Source: Lingula anatina (lineage: Eukaryota > Animalia > Brachiopoda). Taken from it: DNA of 64,000 nucleotides. Below are positions 15,069 through 64,000 of this stretch, piece after piece (position 1 is the first letter of the stretch; every line of letters begins with the position of its first letter). The position numbers and the translations under genes were made by a program. The stretch spans positions 9,176,001 to 9,240,000 of the forward strand of contig CM120649.1 of assembly GCA_051362555.1 (NCBI GenBank). Direction: 5' to 3'. The notes below the pieces were generated by a model. The model saw nothing but the letters and a program-made list of their open reading frames with translations. It had not been told where the DNA came from and searched no databases.

Positions 15069-15720
15069 TGTAACCCGGATGGTTACTTAATTGTGAGCGG
15101 GTAGCAAACTTGAAAACACCGAAGACATCAATGGTATCTCATGAAGATCTTTATTTGCTGACGGGCTACAATCTGGCACGCAGGCAGGGACAGTCACGAC
15201 GATCTCCCGGGGTCTCTCTCCCACTAACTGAGAAGCCCTCATTTTATAGGGAATCGCTCTAAGTCCTGCGTGTCCAATCACTATCACTAAATGTGTGTAA
15301 TTTATAGGAATAATAAGGGAACTAAAGGTAACATACGTGATTAATAGGAAGTATCAGAAAACTAAATACAGGGACTATATTACATTTCATAGTAGCCCTG
15401 AACACGGATATGTTCTCCGGGTAGGAAGGTTACATAACGCTCGGACCTGGGAATGGCCTCAACTGAAATTTCCCCAGGTGTAGTGACTGTTTTTGGTGGA
15501 AGAGATCAAAAGAGCGAAATGACTATAATGAGGCCAAAGTATTTCTACAATTTTAGAGTCGGCACCGGGTTTCCATTTTCTGTCATCTGGAAGGGGTGTA
15601 TCTTCAATTACTTAAATAAATTACTCTACTGAGATATTTGTTTCTAATTTTGGTTTCTCTTCCGTGATTGAAAATGTGATTTAAAGGCAGAGACAAATTG
15701 TATAACACTACCGTGTTATA
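15069..15720 (-). mobile_element. Solo LTR (652 bp) of the Gypsy family at 23268-31265
   Basis: Reverse complement matches the 23268-23919 LTR with 6 substitutions counted by eye. 4-bp TSD CATG at 15065-15068 and 15721-15724. No internal sequence. Confidence 0.96.
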
Positions 15721-22226: not shown

Positions 22227-23267
22227 TACATTACTATTTAGTACGGTCATTTCCGCTCTTGAATGTATATCAACCATGTAAAAGCTTAGTGCTTCCTTTT
22301 ATCGTAACTATTGATTTTTTAACCTAACAGTAGGCTTTGGTTATTTAACTACATACATGAAGTTTCTCGCGATGATTACTGGGGTAAAACGGATGGTAAA
22401 ATTATGCTATTTAAGTGTTAGATGCTGCTGTTTCACCTTGCTGACATCGTCCGCTCTGTGTGTATAGTCCTTGCAGTCCTTGTATGGAGTCCCACGCTCT
22501 CGTGTCGTGGGTCAAAACAGCAAATAACAATCTCCCCAAGACGGGGAGTAGTACCACAAATCAGTGTCGGGATTCGATCCTTACCTAGGGAATTATAGCA
22601 ATAGAATATAGAAACAGACTGTAGCATTAATATTAACATATTCGTTTTGCGCAACATATTCGTTTTGCGCGGAAAGCAAGTGCATATTTTACTGGTCGTG
22701 AGAAAATAATGGAAACTCATCAAACTAAAAAATAAAAAAACATTATGTTAAGGCTAGATCTCATCTTTGCCAAACTTCACACTTCCGCCCTCTCCCCTGT
22801 CCTTCCACTGCGTACATGGACATACTCAGACATAAAGGTCCATAAATTAGGACAGACGAATAAGGCTTATATTGTTTGTTCACCCCTGAAACATTTCCCG
22901 GGTCGCTTGAATATATCAGTGGTTGTCTAAATTGCTTATCTGATTTCAGATTGGTATGTTGTTAACGTACATGATTGTTTTACTAATACATCTCCTTTGC
23001 TTATCTTACTAGGTCGTGCATTAAATGACATTTTATAATGTTTACATTATATACTTTGAAATGGAATATCTTATCGGACACTGGCCAAAAAACTCTATAC
23101 AATACAAACTGCAAGGCGTTGTTATTATATGAAATGTAGTGTTTACAACTTTGAAGTCATTGAATTGGGGTTTGAAAAATCGAAATCGTGGATAATGGCT
23201 GGAAATGATTAATTAATATGTTTACGTCATTTACACAACGCTTTCGGGTAGAGTTTTGGGATGTATG

Positions 23268-23919
23268 TATAACACGGTAGTGTTATACAATTTGTCTCTG
23301 CCTTTAAATCACATTTTCAATCACGGAAGAGAAACCAAAATTAGAAACAAATATCTCAGTAGAGTAATTTATTTAAGTAATTGAAGATACACCCCTTTCA
23401 GATGACAGAAAATGGAAACCCGGTGCCGACTCTAAAATTGTAGAAATACTTTGGCCTCATTATAGTCATTTCGCTCTTTTGATCTCTTCCACCAAAAACA
23501 GTCACTACACCTGGGGAAATTTCAGTTGAGGCCATTCCCAGGTCCGAGCGTTATGTAACCTTCCTACCCGGAGAACATATCCGTGTTCAGGGCTACTATG
23601 AAATGTAATATAGTCCCTGTATTTAGTTTTCTGATACTTCCTATTAATCACGTATGTTACCTTTAGTTCCCTTATTATTCCTATAAATTACACACATTTA
23701 GTGATAGTGATTGGACACGCAGGACTTAGAGCGATTCCCTATAAAATGAGGGCTTCTCAGTTAGTGGGAAAGAGACCCCGGGAGATCGTCGTGACTGTCC
23801 CTGCCTGCGTGCCAGATTGTAGCCCGTCAGCAAATAAAGATCTTCATGAGCTACCATTGATGTCTTCGGTGTTTTCAAGTTTGCTACCCGCTCAGGATTA
23901 AGTAACCAGCCGGGTTACA
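23268..23919 (+). repeat. 5' LTR
   Basis: TATAAC...GTTACA. Contains ATTGG (CCAAT box) near 23710, TATAAAA near 23740 and AATAAA near 23833. Confidence 0.96.
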
Positions 23920-23922
23920 AGG

Positions 23923-23932
23923 TGGTGGAGAA
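23923..23932 (+). promoter_or_regulatory. Primer binding site, probably tRNA-Ala
   Basis: TGGTGGAGAA begins 3 nt after the LTR and is complementary to a ...UUCUCCACCA tRNA 3' end, as in tRNA-Ala. Confidence 0.75.
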
Positions 23933-23980
23933 CACGGTTGATTCCTTCTCCCGCAGCTGAGCCAACAGCAACGTCCCCGC

Positions 23981-24280
23981 ATGTTTTCCAGGCCAGAAAA
24001 CTATTGGTCGACGCCGTTAGCAAATACCAGGCACAAAAAGGCAGGTGAGTCACGTACGTCGATTCCCGTTAAAGAGCCAACGTCTCCTCCGTCGGCACAC
24101 ACCTCACCGACTTCTTCCCGCTCCGCTTCACCAGCATTATCGCAACTCAACGATATCACCGACCCCACTGTTATTCAGCCTTTAGAGAGCAGCGTTTCCG
24201 ACACTGAGAGCTCCACGCCCGCAGATTCTGCCAGAAATTCACCAATTCCCCCCACGTCCCCCACCGCCTGCCCACGCTGA
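23981..24280 (+). CDS. Leader ORF (99 aa, Pro/Ser-rich); first 64 nt probably form the first exon of a spliced env message
   Basis: ATG 23981; consensus donor CAG|GTGAGT at 24044/24045; ends TGA TAA T ATG next to the gag start. Confidence 0.5.
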   Translation: MFSRPENYWSTPLANTRHKKAGESRTSIPVKEPTSPPSAHTSPTSSRSASPALSQLNDITDPTVIQPLESSVSDTESSTPADSARNSPIPPTSPTACPR

Positions 24281-24284
24281 TAAT

Positions 24285-25235
24285 ATGACGGCCGATTCGC
24301 ACTTGATGCCTGAGAAATTCACAGGTTCAACGCACGAAGATTACAATCGTTGGCTAGCCCATTTTAAAAATTACGCAGCATACAGAGGGTTGTCAGACGA
24401 ACAACAACGTTCGGCCTTCCCTCTACTGTTGCGTGGGGCCGCCCTTGATTGGTATGATACATTACCAGAAGAGCACCGCCGTGACATGACAACAATTGAA
24501 TTGGCCTTCACCCGTCGCTTTCGGCCAACTGAAAGCGCAAAATGGGTGGCAGTGTCCAATCTTTTCCACAAAACTCAATCTCCGTCCCAACCAGTCCAGG
24601 ACTATATTGCAGAAATGCGACGAGAGGCGGCTAGAGTTCAACTGCCAGAAGAACAAGCAATTCAAGCCATTTTACACGGTCTGCTACCTGAAGTACGACC
24701 GTTTGTAGCGCAACATGAGCCCCATACCTTCGAAGAACTCATCGCACGCGCACGCCAGGCGGAAACAGCCATTCAACCTTCATCGTCGCCATCTGCCACG
24801 TTAACGGCCCTAAGCACGCAATTGTCCGAAATCAAGGAAAAGATTTCACAACTGTCAACTTCTCCCCCGACACCGGCCACAGTAAATCCTGTGCAGCCTA
24901 CGGCGACATATCCCCAGAACCCCAATTTTCAGCGCCAACCCCCCTCTACTCATTTTCAGAATGCGTACCCTGAGTACATTCCACACGGGCAATTCCAGCA
25001 ACCACGCCGCTCTCACAATGGACCTCCACCCCCTCGATTCCAGGGACGTGCTGGAGCCAGACAGCTGAATCGCAGAGGAAACAGACAATTTGCCATGAAT
25101 CAAGAGACACCAAGCTGTAACGGCTGTGGTATGTCGCATTTACGTAAATTTTGCCCCGCTTCTCATTTAACGTGTAGAAATTGCGGTAGAATTGGTCATT
25201 TAGCTAGGGTCTGCCGTTCTGGTAGGCGCCAATGA
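24285..25235 (+). CDS. gag: Gag (316 aa)
   Basis: Retrotransposon capsid-like PEKFTG...W...F, LLRGAALDWY. Two C-terminal zinc knuckles (CNGCGMSHLRKFC and CRNCGRIGHLARVC). Confidence 0.93.
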   Translation: MTADSHLMPEKFTGSTHEDYNRWLAHFKNYAAYRGLSDEQQRSAFPLLLRGAALDWYDTLPEEHRRDMTTIELAFTRRFRPTESAKWVAVSNLFHKTQSPSQPVQDYIAEMRREAARVQLPEEQAIQAILHGLLPEVRPFVAQHEPHTFEELIARARQAETAIQPSSSPSATLTALSTQLSEIKEKISQLSTSPPTPATVNPVQPTATYPQNPNFQRQPPSTHFQNAYPEYIPHGQFQQPRRSHNGPPPPRFQGRAGARQLNRRGNRQFAMNQETPSCNGCGMSHLRKFCPASHLTCRNCGRIGHLARVCRSGRRQ

Positions 25236-28200
25236 CGGTTAAAAGCACGAAAAAACGAAAAGGCTGTCGGTACACTGTCAAATTCTGTTAAACAAAATTC
25301 TATTTTTATTTCGGCACAAAACTGTAGAATAGACACATTGGTAGATACAGGTGCTTCTGTTTCATGTATATCAAAAGACGTTTTGCATAAAATGGGTATT
25401 TCACTATCTCAGTTAGCTCCGCCTTCTCATTTGAAAACGATTATAGGCGTAGGTGGTGTATCCCAAAATATTTTAGGTGTGTTACGTGTCCAATTTTACA
25501 TTGGCAAAGCAAAATTTACTCACAATTTTCAAGTTATACCAAAACTCACTCGTCCTGCTATTTTGGGCCTTGATTTCCTCCATAATCATGGAGCCACTCT
25601 CAATTTGTCCACCCAGGAATTGATCTTGCGTAACCCCGACATTACAGTCCCCTTTACCGTTTCTGACCAATTGGGCCTCGCACGCAATACATCCACTGTC
25701 ACCATTGCGCCCCACACGGAACAATTAGTACGTGTGCATGTCTCTCGCGTTCACCTAAAATCCCAAGTGTCAACTCTTGTTTTATTGGAACCGACCAACA
25801 TTGTTTCTACGTTATTAGGCGCATCTTCAGTGAATGCTTTGTCAACGCGATATTGCTTTTACCGTATGGCAAATGTGACTCCTAATGCTATCACAATACG
25901 TCGCAATACTATTTTGGCCAAAGCGTCCCGTATTGATTCATCTATGGTAAATCAAATTGATTTCACTTCCAGCCCCGCCCCTCCAATCCCTCCTGCTTCC
26001 CCTCAAAACAAGCAAGCGGCTCTCTCTCTCGGCATTCCCTTTGATCTCACTCATCTTTCTCAAAATCAGCAGAATCAACTGTTATGTCTTATTGGTAGCA
26101 ACAAAGACATTTTTGCCTCAGATTTATCTGAAATTGGTCACGTTCCCCTCTACAAACATACTATTGAAACAGATGGGCATCCTCCGATTGCGCAACGATT
26201 TTATAGGGCCAGTCCTCAAGCCAAAGCAGAGATTGATCGTCAGATAGATAAGATGCTACGGCACGATATCATAGAACCATCTACTTCACCTTGGAGTAGC
26301 CCCGTGGTCCTAGTGAAAAAGAAACAGGGTGATTTTCGATTTGCTATTGATTATCGGAAATTGAATGCCGTTACCAAAACAATCAGCTTCCCCCTCCCTC
26401 GTTTAGAGGACATTTTTGACTCTGTTGCCGACTCCAAAGCTACCTACTTTTCCCTTATGGACATCAATACAGCTTTTTGGACGGTAGGTTTGTCTGACGA
26501 TTCAAAGGAAAAATCAGCTTTTGTTACGCATAGTGGTCAATATCAGTTCAAACGTATGGCGTTTGGTTTGAAAAATGCTCCTTCTTCGTATCAGTACCTT
26601 TTGAGCAACTTATTTCGGCACCTAAATTGGAAATCAGTCATCATTTACATCGATGACATCCTGTCATACTCAAAAACATTCGAGGAACACCTTTTGCACC
26701 TCCAAGAAGTCTTCCATATTCTTCGTCAGGCGAATCTCAAATTAAAACCATCCAAATGCACATTTGCCATGCCTAAAGTACTTTATCTCGGTCATTACGT
26801 TTCAAAACAAGGAATTGAAGTTGACCCCTCCAAAACGGAAGCTGTGAAAACTTTCCCACAACCCAAAAATGTCAAGCAAGTGCGTAGTTTTCTTGGTCTC
26901 TGTAATTGGTACAGACGATTTATCAAAGGCTTCAGCACTATTGCAAAACCTCTCAATGCATTGTTGCAAAAAGATGTGAAATTTCAATGGTCAGAGGAGT
27001 GTGAAACAGCATTCACCACACTCAAGCATAGGCTTATTAACCCGCCTATTCTGAAGTTCCCCGACATGTCCAAACCTTTCATCCTAACGACTGATGCGTC
27101 AGGTCACGCTCTTGGTTACATATTAGGGCAATTAGATGATTCAGGAAGGGAAACGGTCATATGCTATGGTGGCCGCTCATTAACTCCAGCTGAGAAACTG
27201 TACCCAATTACGCAACTTGAATGCTTAGCTGTGCTTGAAGGAGTGAGAACGTATCAAACGTATCTACTGAATCAGCCATTCGTCATTTACACAGATCATC
27301 AGGCTTTGAAATGGCTGAAACAAGTTAAGCATACTACCCCTCGTTTGATTAGATGGGCCTTAGCTTTACAAGAGTATGATTACACAATTCATCATCGCCC
27401 TGGTGACAAAAATCCCGCTGACGCTTTGTCCCGCCGAGATTATGATGCCCCAGTCCCCAAAGTCACCGATGATGATTCCCCGTTGCTAGGGAAAGCCAAA
27501 GATGAAAACGAGGCGCCCGTGCGCACCATAGTTGAGCAACCTCCAATTCCGTCATCTACTGTTCATATCCTTACTGAGATCATTAGTGAAACACAACCTG
27601 ATGTTTTCTCCGCTATTAGTCACTCAGACAAAGATAGTTTATCTCAATTAGCCCTTGCTCAAAGACAATGCGCTGATTTTCAACACATAATCAGTTACCT
27701 TGAGACAGACACGCTACCTAGCGATCCCAAATTGGCGAGGAAAACGGTCTATGAGTCTGACCAGTACATAATGGATGGTGATCTCCTGTTCCATATTTAT
27801 CAACCTCGATCAAAGAACGCTAGTTTGGCAGACAAGAAAATTATACGCCAATTAGCGGTGCCTACACCTTACAGGGATGATGTTTTACACGCATATCATG
27901 ATAGCTTAGCAGCAGGTGCTCATTTTGCCTTTGATAGGAGTTATGAGTTGATCAGGCACAGATTCTACTGGCCTCGCATGTACTCTGAAATTATGCAATA
28001 TGTCAAAACATGTGAACCCTGTCAAAAGGCGAAACGTCATCACGGTCAACGGCCTGCTCCGTTACAACCCCTTCCCATTGTAGGTGTGTGGGACAGACTA
28101 CATATGGACATACTGGGTCCCTTACCTAAATCGACAGAAGGTTACAAGTATATTCTTTTAGTGGTCTGTTCTTTCTCAGCTTGGCCAGAAGCGTTCCCTC

Positions 28201-29213
28201 TCAGAACTCAAACTGCTGAGGAAATAGCTCACGTTTTGTACTCTGAAATCTTTTGTCGTTTTGGAGCGCCCCGAGTGATTGTGTCCGATAGAGGTCGGAA
28301 TTTTACGTCCCTGTTGATCCAGACATTGAGTGACCTGTTTCATGTCAAACGTTCACTAACCTCAGCCTATCACCCGGCCTCAAACGCAGTCGTTGAAAGA
28401 AACAATCAATCCATTGCGCAATCCCTTAGAATTTATTGCAATGAAGCCCAGGATAACTGGCCTTCCATTCTTCCAGGAGTTATGATGGCTCTCAGAGCAA
28501 CGCCAGCTACAGAATCGACCGAGTTTTCCCCTTTTCATTTAATGTTTGGGAGAGAAATGAACACCCCCCTTGAGTCCATTCTGAAACCCCCGGATCACTT
28601 GCCTTCCTCCGTAGAAGATTACATTGACAATATTCAAAGAAATTTGGAAACAGCACGAAAGATAGCCCACGACAATAGATTACGCGCACAAGGAAAATAC
28701 ACGCGTAATTTTGACCGCACAGCAAATCCGCCCCCTTTCCATATAGGTGACAGAGTATTGTTGAAGTGGTCACGTGTCAAACCGGGAAAGAGCCCCAAAT
28801 TGACTTCAAAATTTGTTGGACCTTACTACATAACAGACAGAGTGTCTAGTTATACATTTTTGTTGCGTGACTGCAAAAATAACAAAGCGCACCCGTCACC
28901 CATTCATGCCAATCGGTTGAAATTGTACAAAGATCCACAAGATCGCCCCTTGAGACCACAGCAGCCGTTACCCATTCCCAATCAGGCTGACCCTGCCCCG
29001 GCACCACCGGCTGATGAGCCACCCCCAGTGCCCGATGAATGGTTCGATGTTGAAAAGCTACTGAAGTGTAAAAACATACGCGGCGTCAAACATTACTTAG
29101 TGAAGTGGAAAGGATATACCCCAACTTGGGAGCCCCACTTTAACGTTGCGCCTTCCTTGATCAGAGAATTCCATATCCATAAAACCCTCAGTGGGAAAAG
29201 TCGCAAAAGATAA
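25236..29213 (+). CDS. pol: Pol polyprotein: aspartic protease, RT, RNase H, integrase, chromodomain; open from the gag stop in the same frame
   Basis: LVDTGA protease; YIDD RT; TTDAS RNase H; HHCC zinc finger and D-D-E (HMDILGP, SDRGRNF, VERNN); GPY; C-terminal WFDVEKLL...YLVKWKGY..TWEP. No internal stops. Confidence 0.96.
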   Translation, partial: RLKARKNEKAVGTLSNSVKQNSIFISAQNCRIDTLVDTGASVSCISKDVLHKMGISLSQLAPPSHLKTIIGVGGVSQNILGVLRVQFYIGKAKFTHNFQVIPKLTRPAILGLDFLHNHGATLNLSTQELILRNPDITVPFTVSDQLGLARNTSTVTIAPHTEQLVRVHVSRVHLKSQVSTLVLLEPTNIVSTLLGASSVNALSTRYCFYRMANVTPNAITIRRNTILAKASRIDSSMVNQIDFTSSPAPPIPPASPQNKQAALSLGIPFDLTHLSQNQQNQLLCLIGSNKDIFASDLSEIGHVPLYKHTIETDGHPPIAQRFYRASPQAKAEIDRQIDKMLRHDIIEPSTSPWSSPVVLVKKKQGDFRFAIDYRKLNAVTKTISFPLPRLEDIFDSVADSKATYFSLMDINTAFWTVGLSDDSKEKSAFVTHSGQYQFKRMAFGLKNAPSSYQYLLSNLFRHLNWKSVIIYIDDILSYSKTFEEHLLHLQEVFHILRQANLKLKPSKCTFAMPKVLYLGHYVSKQGIEVDPSKTEAVKTFPQPKNVKQVRSFLGLCNWYRRFIKGFSTIAKPLNALLQKDVKFQWSEECETAFTTLKHRLINPPILKFPDMSKPFILTTDASGHALGYILGQLDDSGRETVICYGGRSLTPAEKLYPITQLECLAVLEGVRTYQTYLLNQPFVIYTDHQALKWLKQVKHTTPRLIRWALALQEYDYTIHHRPGDKNPADALSRRDYDAPVPKVTDDDSPLLGKAKDENEAPVRTIVEQPPIPSSTVHILTEIISETQPDVFSAISHSDKDSLSQLALAQRQCADFQHIISYLETDTLPSDPKLARKTVYESDQYIMDGDLLFHIYQPRSKNASLADKKIIRQLAVPTPYRDDVLHAYHDSLAAGAHFAFDRSYELIRHRFYWPRMYSEIMQYVKTCEPCQKAKRHHGQRPAPLQPLPIVGVWDRLHMDILGPLPKSTEGYKYILLVVCSFSAWPEAFPLRTQTAEEIAHVLYSEIFCRFGAPRVIVSDRGRNFTSLLIQTLSDLFHVKRSLTSAYHPASNAVVERNNQSIAQSLRIYCNEAQDNWPSILPGVMMALRATPATESTEFSPFHLMFGREMNTPLESILKPPDHLPSSVEDYIDNIQRNLETARKIAHDNRLRAQGKYTRNFDRTANPPPFHIGDRVLLKWSRVKPGKSPKLTSKFVGPYYITDRVSSYTFLLRDCKNNKAHPSPIHANRLKLYKDPQDRPLRPQQPLPIPNQADPAPAPPADEPPPVPDEWFDVEKLLKCKNIRGVKHYLVKWKGYTPTWEPHFNVAPSLIREFHIHKTLSGKSRKR

Positions 29214-29728
29214 GTCCCTTCATTAGGCATGGTTATTATTCTACGTAGACCTATTTCGAGTTTAACGGTCCCAGCTATTTCAATGTGATATTTTAAACCT
29301 GTTATATCATGGTTTATTCTACCCCTACTGATTTTCCTGGTCATACGGTAATCAGCGGTACGTCACGAACTTATTATAGCAGTGATTAAGAAACAATTGC
29401 CGTCCCTTTAGCATCTATTCCACATGCTATGTATTCTTATGAAAATTGCGATAAAGTTTGATTAGACAAGTACTTCAAAGATTAATGTTACAGTTTCGCG
29501 CTCATGCACCTTAAACACGTATTTGCGACATGAAGATAACAGTTCGGGCGCTCGAGATTCTCCGTGCGTTCGGTGACACGCACACATGTTCATAGTAATT
29601 ATCAGTACCAAATTCGAAATTAGATGATTTACATACTAGTGGGCCCACATGAGGGATTCCTAGCGTCATCCGTTTCATCTGAGCCGGCTACTCTACTTTC
29701 TACTAACACGCACTTATCTCTTCAAAAG

Positions 29729-30010
29729 ATGAAACTGATGCACGCATGAGAGTCACCTCACAGTATGTACCATCGAAACCTCTGTCTAGGTTTAAGTTAC
29801 TGCCGAAGATTTGCATAGTCAGCTTGTTGATGATGATGATACCCGTTACGAAAGCGTTATACCATGAAGATAAAGTTATCCACCGCGTTAATTACGGTAC
29901 CATATGTATTTACACCTATAGGGAAGATATTGCCTTCCGCTGAATTTTGGTCTCATACGTATGAATTAACCATGCCTGATTTTACCGTAAAGAGTCTCCC
30001 AACTTTCTTT
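29729..30010 (+). pseudogene. Frameshifted, truncated env-like ORF remnant
   Basis: Signal-peptide-like KICIVSLLMMMIPVTKA, then HRVNYGTI / frameshift / FTPIGKILPSAEFWSHTYEL. Preceded by TACTAAC, a pyrimidine tract and AG. Lies between pol and the 3' LTR. Confidence 0.6.
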
Positions 30011-30600
30011 GTCCCTTTTAAAGTCATTGGGTATAACTATTTCCTATATAAATTGCGGATTGAAGCACTTGATATTCTTGTTTAGGTAACTTCTTGCCTT
30101 CAGTCTTCACGTTTTTCGTGCTTTTTAATGATTAATAATTTAATAATTTAATGATTTAGTACTATATCAAAGACATATTTATTGTAGGGGCAAAGTTTAT
30201 TCTGCGACATATAACAACCTTATTTCATGCCTATTCCTTAACTCTTTGGATATAGTATTTTACCGGTTAAATGCATTTTTCGTTATGAACTTACTTGATG
30301 TTTATTTCTAGTGTTTATTGTGTCACTCTTTATTAATGCATATTAATGTATACTGGTTTAATGGACTTTACTTAGCTATAAATATGTATATGAGATGTCC
30401 TTATTTTTAATCACGTCTATTTTCCATTACTATCTTTTATGATGCCGCACTCCTGAACGTGATTCTTTATTTGATGGTCATTTGTCCACGCCAGGAATCT
30501 CCAACTGTTATCAACTTAACCACTTTTGTTGTGTTTCTTTACTTATAGTTTTTAAGTGTTTTCTAGTGTTTTTGTTTTGGCCGGAGGCCAAACTTCTCGC

Positions 30601-30610
30601 GGACGGAAGG
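30601..30610 (+). promoter_or_regulatory. Polypurine tract
   Basis: GGACGGAAGG, 3 nt before the 3' LTR. Confidence 0.65.
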
Positions 30611-30613
30611 TCA

Positions 30614-31265
30614 TATAACACGGTAGTGTTATACAATTTGTCTCTGCCTTTAAATCACATTTTCAATCACGGAAGAGAAACCAAAATTAGAAACAAATAT
30701 CTCAGTAGAGTAATTTATTTAAGTAATTGAAGATACACCCCTTTCAGATGACAGAAAATGGAAACCCGGTGCCGACTCTAAAATTGTAGAAATACTTTGG
30801 CCTCATTATAGTCATTTCGCTCTTTTGATCTCTTCCACCAAAAACAGTCACTACACCTGGGGAAATTTCAGTTGAGGCCATTCCCAGGTCCGAGCGTTAT
30901 GTAACCTTCCTACCCGGAGAACATATCCGTGTTCAGGGCTACTATGAAATGTAATATAGTCCCTGTATTTAGTTTTCTGATACTTCCTATTAATCACGTA
31001 TGTTACCTTTAGTTCCCTTATTATTCCTATAAATTACACACATTTAGTGATAGTGATTGGACACGCAGGACTTAGAGCGATTCCCTATAAAATGAGGGCT
31101 TCTCAGTTAGTGGGAAAGAGACCCCGGGAGATCGTCGTGACTGTCCCTGCCTGCGTGCCAGATTGTAGCCCGTCAGCAAATAAAGATCTTCATGAGCTAC
31201 CATTGATGTCTTCGGTGTTTTCAAGTTTGCTACCCGCTCAGGATTAAGTAACCAGCCGGGTTACA
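30614..31265 (+). repeat. 3' LTR
   Basis: 652 bp; no differences from the 5' LTR seen by eye. Confidence 0.96.
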
Positions 31266-33062
31266 TATGGATAAAGTGAAATAGGCAGCAACCAGTAAGA
31301 ACGTTTTGAACTTCATCACAGCGTCATGGGATATTTCGCGCCATTAATTGACCTCCTATATTTGCAAACATGAAACGTGCGTTTTATAACATATATCCCA
31401 CTGAGTCAGAGAGCCATTGAGGAGAGGAAGACTTAGTACAAGATGTTCTCGCTCCCGGACACCTGAGCTAATCTAAACACTATCTCGTTTAATGGTTCCT
31501 AGAGTTAATTGCTGTATGCTGACAAAACCTACGTGTGTTTAAACGAATGTACGTCGAATTTTAAATTTCTGTTTTAAATTACTCGAATATTCATCGTGAT
31601 TCCTATTGGAAATTCCCTGAAGTTCCAGTGCACTGAGAAGTGTTGCCAAGTATATTGTATCAGGTAAATCATGCGATTATGCACACAGGCAGCGAGGCCT
31701 CTTGGTGAAATTTCACGATGATTAGCAATCTTATTGACGATACTTTCGAATTCTGTCAATGCGTGATGGGATATTTGTGTAGGGCGGATATACATTCAAG
31801 CAGAACGGTTTACCAGCAAAAGGTCGCACATCAAAACCATCCTAGCAGCCGTCACTGCAGAGACAGATCCATAAAGAGAACGAGGATAAAATAACAAAAT
31901 CGAACACTTTCGATTTACATGGAATGAGCTTAGACAGCTGACTAAATTAAAAACGAGTGGACCCCGCTTCACATCTTTATCAACCAGTAATCAACAGATC
32001 CCTTGATAATCTCTTTACCCTCACTGACATGTTGTCCGGAACCGCGCAAATTTTAGATATGAATGTAATTTAGAAATGGGCTCGTTATACGGACACCGTT
32101 GGAAACTTTTAGTTCGGATAACGCGTTAATATTACATACCAGGTTCGTGGTCAAAATAGTTACGTGTAAATCGCTATGAGGAAATCCAACACTGACAACG
32201 ATAACCAGTTTCAATCATTTAATGTTCACTCGTTGCTTGCTCAGGTACATTCTGATGATATGTTGAATATTACACCCTATAGTATCTAACCAAGACAATG
32301 GCTTCATGAACTTCCTAATCAATAGCTTCTTAATCAGAATAGTAAACAAGCCTACTCTGCCTCTTTACACTTTACCTAACGTATTATGAGGAGTTAAGCC
32401 TACAGTAAAAAGTTATTACGGAAATTGCCTGTGAATTATTTGATGTCTCCGACAATGTGAATAAAAGCTGAAGACTTACCGGTATATCATAATATTTACA
32501 ACGCAACAGATATTGTGCAACCTCTACACAATCGTGCTGCCTTCATGTCATGTTGTATCACTTCAAGTTGACATTGGTCTGTCAGTAGTGATTACTTGTT
32601 AAACTGCCTTACCAAAGGACAGCTGAAAACGCACTGAAAGCTCAAATTAGAGTGCAGATGAATGTCGATCTAATCGCAAAGCAGGTCGTTATCTTGACTG
32701 AGATTTTTTAGTATATCCAATCATTTTTCAGAGTGATGTGTACTAGAAACGCCCAGTCATTTCTGGGTTAACTATGAGGCATGTTACATGCTACAGAGGC
32801 ATATGGGTTTTATTATCTAATATTCATTGTTGTTAAAAAATTGCTAGATGCCTTGATGCCATATTTCACAACAGAAGAAATTATTCCCCTGTGCAATCTT
32901 ACAGTAGAATCCAAATACTTAATATACGGCTATATACTCGTACAGCGTATGCATAGACGTTCCCTTTGAACGCAGGCTTGCTGTATGGTTTTACAATATT
33001 GATTTGCTTCCTTCCTTAATGCAAAATGAGAATATTTTACGTGTATTTTTTTCTTTCTTTAG

Positions 33063-61480: not shown

Positions 61481-61664
61481 TACTTATTCTTATTCAAATT
61501 TACTTACAATTTATTGTTTAAACAATGCCACTTAAACAATATTGTAACAATATAATACATATCTTAATAGTCTACTTATTCTTATTCAAATTTACTTACA
61601 ATTTATTGTTTAAATAATGTCACTTAAACAATATTGTAACAATATAACACATATCTTAACAGTC
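61481..61664. repeat. 92-bp direct tandem duplication covering the BEL stop codon and 3' UTR
   Basis: 61481-61572 matches 61573-61664 with a few substitutions. Confidence 0.9.
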
Positions 61665-64000
61665 TCCCTCTAAAAATACTAATTTTGTGATGGGTCTATT
61701 ATAGCGAGACGATTTAGTACGAACCGTCGCGCTACGCACTAAGCTATCTCTCCCAATCTTAACATTTTCTACTACAGCAAGAGGCCATGAACCACGGGGC
61801 ATAGAAGCATCAACAATAAGGACAAGGTCCCCCCTCTTTAAATTTCGCTTGATCTCCCGCCACTTGGGTCTAGACTGAAGCAAAGACAAATATTCCCTAG
61901 TCCATCGCTTCCAGAACTGGGAAACAAGAAATTGACAATGTCTCCACAACCGTCTATACGCATCTGCTATTTCAAAATCACCCCAAGGAAGAGAGGGATT
62001 GTTACGGAGTAGTAACAGATGGTTAGGAGTAAGAGCGTCACAGTCATTTGAGTCAGTGCTGACTTTTGTCATGGGTCTTCCATTTATAATGCTTTCGCAC
62101 TCACATAAAATTGTTTGTAATACCCAATCAGATAATGACTTGGTAGACACATTTGACAACAGTGCTGTCAGTATTTTTCTGACAGTTCTTATCATGCGTT
62201 CCCAGATCCCTCCATGATGGGATGCATGTGGGGGGTTAAAATTCCACTCGACGCCTCTGCGTCTTGTTTCCCTAAGTATTTTACTCTTGTCGAGCTGACG
62301 TAAGCTTCGCGCCAGCTCACTTTGAGCACCAATAAAATTCGTGGCATTGTCACTATAAAGTTTGGAAGGACATCCTTTTCTCGCGACAAAACGGAAAAAC
62401 CCATTGAGAAACGCGTCGGTACTCAAATTTTCCAACACCTCAATATGCAACGCCCGTGTTTTGAAGCAAGTAAAAATGCATCCAAAACGCTTTACGTCAG
62501 AACGTCCTACTTTCACAACAAGTGGCCCGAAAATATCGATGCCGACAATATCAAAAGGAGGCCCCCCTGCGCTGCACCTGTCCTCGGGCAAATCCGCCAT
62601 TTTCTGCGACATAGGTAACGCGTAGAGCTTTTTGCAGATTACGCAGTTTTTGACGATTTTCTTCACCAAATTTCTTCCATCGACTATCCAGTACTTCCGA
62701 CGGACAATACTATGGGTCCACTCAGTTCCCATATGTGCTCCACCGTGAAAGTCGCGAATGATTGAAGAGCAAATTTTGTGAGATCTGGGCAAAATGGGGG
62801 GCTGTTTACATGCTAATGATGAATGAATAAGCCGACCGCCAACAACTAAAATCCCGTCCTTCACAATAGGAGATAACTTGTAGATTGCACTCGATCGCGA
62901 AATAACGCCGGACTCACTCAAAGATTGAATTTCACGACCGAATACTTCGCTTTGGACTGCTCTGAAAATGGAATCTTCAGCTTCTTTCAACTCGGATGCC
63001 GTTACGTTCGTTTTTATGATGTCTTTTCCACGAAGATGTCTTTTGAATCGTAAAAGCCATGCCACAGCTTTGCAAAGCTTGTAAAAACTGGAATAATGAT
63101 TCCATAACTTTTGTAAAGGTGAGACATCTCTTTCAGATACGGCTTTCTCAAGTTGTTCACTGACAATGCATGTGTGGATTTCAAGATCATTAGAAATGTC
63201 CCGAGAGGACTTTGGGCAGGACCATTTTGATCTGAATTCCGATAAAAATGCAGGACCCTTCATCCAATTTTCAGGCATTTCATCAACATTGCTTCCTCGC
63301 GATAAAATATCGGCTGGATTGGATTTGCCGGGAATCCGTCGCCATTGTTGCACACTGGTATTTTGTCTTATGTAAGACACCCTATTTGCCACGAACGTTT
63401 TGAAACGCGTAGTTTCATTTGCAATATAGGCCAACGCGACCTCACTATCACTCCAAAATGTAGTAGGCAACAAAGGTACATCCATTTCTTCGCGGATTAA
63501 CCGATCAAGGTCAACAGCGACAACACATGCAGTAAGTTCCAGTCTCGGTATAGTGACTTGCTTTTTAAAGGCGCTAATCTGCTTTTAGCTACCAATAACG
63601 CAATACGGATTTTGCCATCACTACAGACTGATCGAAGGTATGCACAAGCTCCGTAAGCCTTTTCACTAGCATCACAAAAAATGTGCACCTCGGCAGCATA
63701 ACTCGTCTCCGAAATAACACACCTTGGAAAATGAAGAGTGTGTAAATCTTTCAAAGATTCAATCCAACGTTGCCATTCAAGACTCAAGTCACCAGGCACC
63801 GGTGTGTCCCATCCTTCGCGCAACCGCGTTACCTTTTGAAATATCATTTTACCGCGTGTGATGACAGGAGATATCAATCCAAGAGGATCATACATCGAGG
63901 CAACCGTACTGAGAATGATACGCTTGGTAACAATCGCGCTTTCTTTGAGTCTGAAGATGTAATAGAAATAATCAGGCATGACTTCCCATTTAATCCCGAG
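61656..64000 (-). pseudogene. pol: BEL/Pao pol (RT end, RNase H, integrase) with one frameshift near 63564
   Basis: YDPLGLISP, HIFCDASEKAYGA, AKSRLAP, shifted TIPRLEL, WSDS, NPADILSRG, QKMADLP, GIDIFGP, SDNATNF, GGIWERMIR, FWKRWTREYL, RPITKL. Confidence 0.92.

Follow-up and report, generated by a model that had tools for sequence, protein, structure and literature searches.

Within a 64,000-nucleotide (nt) stretch of the genome of the brachiopod Lingula anatina (GCA_051362555.1, contig CM120649.1, positions 9,176,001 to 9,240,000 of the forward strand; hereafter the window, numbered from its first letter), a chromodomain Ty3/gypsy retrotransposon carries gag, pol and, downstream of pol, part of an envelope gene (env). 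The first-pass annotation of the window had proposed that env is expressed from a spliced RNA, the donor of which lies in a short leader open reading frame (ORF) ahead of gag. Here we describe the env remnant and the candidate splice sites in this element and its relatives. The features under discussion are as follows.

23268-31265 (+): the element as a whole, a chromodomain Ty3/gypsy retrotransposon
23264-23267 and 31266-31269: target-site duplication TATG, 4 nt, flanking the element
23268..23919 (+): 5′ long terminal repeat (LTR), 652 nt, termini TATAAC...GTTACA, identical to the 3′ LTR
23923..23940 (+): primer-binding-site-like TGGTGGAG, starting three bases past the 5′ LTR, presumably of tRNA-Ala type
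23981..24280 (+): leader ORF, 99 amino acids, 48% Ser/Pro/Thr, out of frame with gag
24042..24050 (+): candidate donor 1 (leader), CAG/GTGAGT, cut 24044/24045, phase 1, score 8.0
24285..25235 (+): gag, Retrotrans_gag/Ty3 capsid and two zinc knuckles, terminating in TGA
25126..25134 (+): candidate donor 2, GTG/GTATGT, cut 25128/25129, phase 1, at the Cys-Gly of the first zinc knuckle
25236..29213 (+): pol, open for 1,325 amino acids, with protease, reverse transcriptase, RNase H, integrase, SH3-like domain and chromodomain
29701..29728 (+): branch-point consensus TACTAAC, pyrimidine-rich stretch and AAG acceptor, phase 1
29731..29905 (+): env remnant piece 1, with ATG 29746, a signal-like hydrophobic stretch and the R.NYG motif (R codon 29884)
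29906..29980 (+): env remnant piece 2, in a different frame from piece 1
30614..31265 (+): 3′ LTR, followed by TATG at 31266-31269

The element and its env remnant

A domain scan identified the Ty3/gypsy pol order (PR-RT-RH-IN) with gag upstream, a single Ty3-type RNase H region and a chromodomain C-terminal to the integrase (PF00385, E 5.4e-06). Both gag and pol are open and share one frame across a single stop, a layout found in 11/11 tabulated relatives, and this stop is presumably passed by readthrough. Over the integrase region, pol shares 38-51% identity with its relatives, among which the named eukaryotic sequences are from molluscs; a quick tree placed the element among env-bearing loci and mollusc-named proteins, with its deep nodes open. 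The element is a young, recent insertion, because its LTRs are identical and the 4-nt target-site duplication is present.

By homology, the third ORF is a remnant of an F-type class I fusion protein env. A Pinctada gene model, itself a pol relative, continues into a Baculo_F domain (E 2.2e-12) and matches 29906-29977 of the window (E 1.9e-4), which is the top hit among 34 in a tblastn search with 120 proteins. A search with the Baculo_F domain of this model returned 62 proteins, of which 51 have the R.NYG motif behind a signal-like stretch. When an env profile of these 51 proteins was compared with 2,884 window segments, the two natural frames of the remnant ranked 1 and 2 and were collinear: piece 2 came first (profile positions 35-59, E 0.001) and piece 1 second (positions 8-35, E 0.048). 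The alignment of env relatives also matches two PDB ‘fusion protein’ sequences (E 1.2e-13), and the predicted model of an intact relative, P0152 (pLDDT, a confidence measure, 73; pTM 0.49), matches RSV F (E 7e-10, the best match), hPIV3 F and hMPV F, with low TM-scores. The expectation that the env-like ORF would show fusion-protein homology is therefore borne out, and relatives with intact env show that the lineage is env-bearing, as had been supposed.

Little of env survives in this copy. Only profile positions 8-59 of 725 are present, split over two frames, which amounts to the signal region and about 35 further residues with a frame break, and the same profile search found no later env part in the window better than E 1. 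The frame of piece 1, with its hydrophobic stretch and HRVNYGTI, stops at 29941-29943. As the first-pass annotation had proposed, a frame shift near 29905 leads on to an env-like stretch, FTPIG...HTYEL, in the next frame (open 29840-30082). A Pfam scan of the natural frame gave no match, nor did a word-index search and Pfam scan of the remnant read through its break. The motif lies 730 nt from the LTR, compared with ~770 codons after the motif in most intact relatives. A furin site and a membrane anchor had been named as features to look for: intact relatives mostly have a furin site and have two membrane segments, whereas in this copy the furin site, fusion peptide and membrane anchors of env are lost. 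Because its env is interrupted and lacks these parts, the element is an env-degenerate derivative of an errantivirus lineage and not an intact errantivirus. The earlier view that this copy has lost most of env therefore holds. Given identical LTRs but a truncated and broken env, the element probably transposed after env loss.

In intact env relatives (P0152, P0151, L020, L024, L060 and L062), the two membrane-like segments are followed by a C-terminal part of ~130 amino acids, which is mostly a beta-strand domain in the predicted model; F proteins usually have short tails. Four of the env-bearing animal retroelements (L060-L063) came from bacterial genome bins titled Sedimenticola and evidently reflect host contamination.

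Candidate splice signals for env in the element and its relatives

Splice sites were compared across 65 relative loci, of which 40 have an env start and 25 were dropped (no env N-terminal anchor). Thirty-eight loci in 25 clusters were scored for acceptors, leaving out L063 (contig end) and L065 (no true motif). Splice scores derive from generic matrices and are approximate.

The branch point, pyrimidine tract and acceptor reported between pol and env are in place, with TACTAAC at 29701-29707 and the AG at 29727-29728, although the tract is modest. TACTAAC occurs 7 times in 128 kb (the window, both strands), or 0.016 expected per 300 nt, and because it is so rare its position here is more than chance. 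The AAG acceptor scores 1.5, against a median of 5.7 in relatives, ranks 43/352 among AGs in the internal region and 2/34 between pol and env, and its spacer to the motif is 155 nt, compared with 62-127 nt in relatives. Among the relatives, the best AG 60-200 nt ahead of the motif is in phase 1 in 19/25 env clusters, compared with 78/189 for all AGs (p 4.5e-4), and the median acceptor score is 5.7, compared with 1.5 in control windows inside env. In 10/19 clusters with a phase-1 acceptor there is no Met at least 18 residues ahead of the motif, and these 10 therefore need an upstream exon. At three loci (L015, L019 and L023), a Met precedes the signal and a phase-1 acceptor is missing. From these signals, we regard it as very likely that env in this family is spliced at a phase-1 acceptor, as the first-pass annotation had suggested.

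Two candidate donors fit this acceptor, and they rank 1 and 2 among the 77 GTs between the 5′ region and the end of gag. The leader donor, found where it had been annotated, lies 125 nt after the LTR and 64 nt after ATG 23981, the first ATG 3′ of the LTR. Joining 24044 to 29729 in phase 1 does enter the frame with the hydrophobic stretch and HRVNYGTI. However, this phase match is weak evidence for the leader donor, because it has a 1-in-3 chance of arising and an ATG within the env frame itself follows the acceptor, at 29746. The second donor, at the first zinc knuckle of gag, scores 2.6.

The relatives examined that include a 5′ end show no consistent phase-1 donor near the gag start. The leader ORF itself, which stops 4 nt ahead of the gag ATG, is about as long as the N-terminal extension seen in related Gags (median 91 amino acids), and an in-frame extension of at least 50 amino acids is present in 101/150 of them. 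It had no significant sequence match to these 150 Gags and no match in a Pfam scan. Its being out of frame could mean that this copy has suffered a break, or that translation stops and restarts. We considered a small intron that would bring the leader into frame with gag, and rejected it, as phase-1 acceptors there score at most -1.0.

A donor at the first knuckle, by comparison, recurs. A phase-1 GT at the glycine after CxxC is present in L020, L021, L024, L026, L027, L046, L061 and L062, and in L062 (CAG/GTAAGG) it ranks 1/82. L032 has a phase-1 GT at an earlier glycine of the first knuckle, and L004, which has no knuckles, has as its top donor a phase-1 AAG/GTAGGA near the gag end. Codon choice also points to this site. 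First-knuckle glycine codons that are followed by A are GGT in 10/12 cases (window included; L064, a duplicate of L027, and L004 left out), compared with 74/249 (30%) elsewhere in gag and pol, a difference with a p value of 1.9e-4 that is overstated because six of the loci counted form one clade in the quick tree (where L064 stands for L027). At the second knuckle, GGT is used in 1/5 such codons. Gag identities among relatives are mostly 20-50%. Since IMG/VR scans with pol returned no relatives, the comparison is without an env-less control set. On these counts, the knuckle donor is conserved at the codon level across relatives.

Gene models of relatives place the junction at the same glycine. 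Among env proteins with at least 55 residues before the motif, 12/27 join directly after CxxCG; the remaining 15 comprise read-ins from genomic sequence, joins to pol or a chromodomain, a single near miss (CGCG) and unclassified cases. All named oyster models holding the motif (12/12) join after CxxCG, and 13/13 fused models checked keep no CCHC knuckle. In the same clusters, unspliced Gags have CG-KS or CG-ES, both of which can be encoded as G/GTRAGT. At one oyster locus, two isoforms (P0442 and P0443) depart from the same glycine and continue into different downstream sequences; isoforms in RefSeq are based on transcript alignments. The knuckle junction is present in models from Saccostrea, Magallana/Crassostrea, Pinctada, Pecten and Argopecten, and also from Mizuhopecten, Mytilus, Mercenaria and Haliotis. 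A short leader exon on env was never seen in the gene models examined. The claim that the leader donor is the env donor of the family is therefore not upheld: it has no conserved counterpart, and DNA and gene models favour the first gag knuckle.

RNA reads, LTR structure and neighbouring sequences

Four of nine raw RNA runs, covered at 6-25% of each run, yielded 101 reads over 7,346 nt. Depth was zero at the leader-donor bin in all four runs, and about 0.5-1.5 at the knuckle donor and acceptor in one run. In the LTR region 23300-23830 (runs X15, X17 and X18), most reads are 90-99% alike with loose ends, which suggests that they come from diverged related LTR pieces within other transcripts.

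A solo LTR of the same family lies 7.5 kb upstream of the element:

15069..15720 (-): solo LTR, 6 differences in 652 nt, target-site duplication CATG

All three LTRs (23268-23273, 30614-30619 and 15715-15720) start with TA rather than TG and open with a hairpin, TATAACAC-GGTA-GTGTTATA. An internal TGTAACC is the exact inverted partner of the terminal GGTTACA, as if an older LTR of 366 nt (23554-23919) were nested inside the 652-nt LTR. Elsewhere in the window there is a single long ORF with a galactosyltransferase domain (PF01762; 8594-9862, -) and an integrase-bearing ORF (61656-63584, -) that resembles a BEL/Pao fragment.

Possible routes to Env expression and relation to known errantiviruses

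Taken together, the acceptors, knuckle codons and gene models make it reasonably probable that env in this lineage is made from a spliced RNA that uses the first-knuckle donor, giving a Gag(capsid)-Env fusion without nucleocapsid. By analogy with relatives, genomic RNA would give Gag and, via stop readthrough, Gag-Pol, while a splice from the knuckle glycine to the acceptor would remove the nucleocapsid and pol and thereby place the env signal sequence behind the capsid domain. The internal signal may then be cleaved, which would release mature Env and leave the capsid anchored in the membrane. Any spliced RNA from this copy would stop ~70 codons past the acceptor, so that no fusogen would be made; the element likely transposes within cells, as do the env-less Drosophila revertants discussed below.

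Several observations weigh against a knuckle splice. In this element the leader donor scores far above the knuckle donor (8.0 vs 2.6). In the relatives, L023 and L014 have no knuckle donor, that of L015 is in phase 0, and several others score -0.8 to 1.3 and rank 4-16 among 68-135 GTs; the best acceptor of L061 is in phase 0, and L046 looks like the six codon-count loci that form one clade. Control windows inside env lean to phase 1 too (129/223), and for this reason the contrast in acceptor scores outweighs the phase count. Gene models are predictions, and the fusion was found in 0/51 unnamed Logan or ENA assembly-derived cluster members with the motif and in none of 15 Logan proteins from the Baculo_F-domain search. 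No junction read was recovered for either donor, with 101 reads being too shallow to test either junction.

An alternative is that env is spliced from 24044 to 29729 as in ZAM, with the knuckle GT idle in this lineage. The leader donor may be used here: it is the strongest of the 77, in phase 1 and behind the first ATG 3′ of the LTR, the longer acceptor-to-motif spacer would fit splicing that has diverged in this element, and ZAM, gypsy5, tirant and Beagle2 are described as using short peptide exons upstream of gag (PMC12992720). We nevertheless consider this unlikely, given the lack of a consistent counterpart near the gag start in relatives, the missing leader exon in gene models, the resemblance of the leader to an out-of-frame Gag N-terminal extension and a phase agreement that chance and the ATG after the acceptor devalue. 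That both donors serve the same acceptor, producing a conventional leader-Env as well as a Gag-Env form, would suit their shared phase and top two ranks, but only the knuckle donor is consistent in relatives and no RNA read spans either junction, which makes this arrangement rather improbable. Least of all do we favour the absence of a functional splice, in which case a subgenomic RNA would have been translated from the ATG of env itself and the knuckle junctions would be artefacts of gene prediction. In its favour, ATG 29746 lies in the env frame, L015, L019 and L023 carry a Met ahead of the signal in place of a phase-1 acceptor, the acceptor here is weak and the unnamed assembly-derived proteins include no fusion. 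Against this stand strong phase-1 acceptors in most clusters, half of them without a usable Met, the codon bias at synonymous sites of the donor glycine, a shared junction in models from many mollusc genera and a TACTAAC that is unlikely by chance, and we judge this route very improbable.

The literature already contains an env-bearing, retrovirus-like lineage in invertebrates: F-type errantiviruses with a chromodomain have been described in Cnidaria, Mollusca and Annelida by Chary and Hayashi (PMC13524379). Our element shares with these the Ty3/gypsy gag-pol-env order, the F-type env and the chromodomain after the integrase, whereas its own env is truncated and broken. The string ‘splic’ is absent from the main text of that paper, which does not treat env expression. 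A lokiretrovirus was also considered and rejected, because that group, as described in PMC7947760, requires a dual RNase H (tether plus acquired) and a single Ty3-type region is present here.

In Drosophila, Senti et al. (PMC12992720) report env splicing from short leader exons (ZAM, Beagle), from an AU dinucleotide (springer) and from within gag (idefix). They also describe ‘retroelement revertants’ among insect errantiviruses (iERVs; accord, McClintock, burdock and rover variants), which are env-less with env remnants. Like these, our element has open gag and pol, an env remnant and a young insertion; it differs in its non-insect lineage, stop-readthrough gag-pol and chromodomain. The short coding exon just 3′ of the 5′ LTR in ZAM, gypsy5 and tirant corresponds to candidate donor 1, the position of which, however, is not conserved in the relatives examined. 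Closer to the proposed knuckle splice is the idefix subclade (idefix, quasimodo and rover), in which a Gag-coding exon is spliced to env exon 2. Exon 1 is annotated there at 340, 355 and 394 nt; these lengths are all phase 1, and the annotations bear a ‘Q’ mark (Dataset EV2, PMC12992720). That subclade keeps about one third of Gag, whereas the splice proposed here would retain the entire capsid region as far as the first knuckle and lose only the nucleocapsid. Likewise, a spliced RNA of Cer1 CERV in C. elegans is described as joining Gag-shared exons to an ORF at the env position (PMC10309623), although CERV is a nuclear RNA-export protein with five exons and no env homology.

Literature searches, which covered text outside subscription papers and figures, returned no description of a Gag-Env splice from a knuckle donor for this group. 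The element, its env type and env decay in mobile copies are known kinds, and the new part is probably the env expression route outside insects. More tentatively, in mollusc- and annelid-type errantiviruses Env might be born as a capsid-signal-Env polyprotein via the first-knuckle splice; the nucleocapsid-less capsid, membrane-anchored after signal cleavage, would then co-assemble with normal Gag and tie particles to Env-bearing membranes as a substitute for the matrix domain missing from Ty3/gypsy Gag, an idea that we hold possible though doubtful. The weight of the finding lies in the family-level splice and not in this decayed copy. If true, a donor fixed in the first zinc knuckle would mean that many mollusc elements make a capsid-Env fusion, and it would suggest in concrete, testable terms how envelope-bearing membranes are located by capsids that have no matrix domain.

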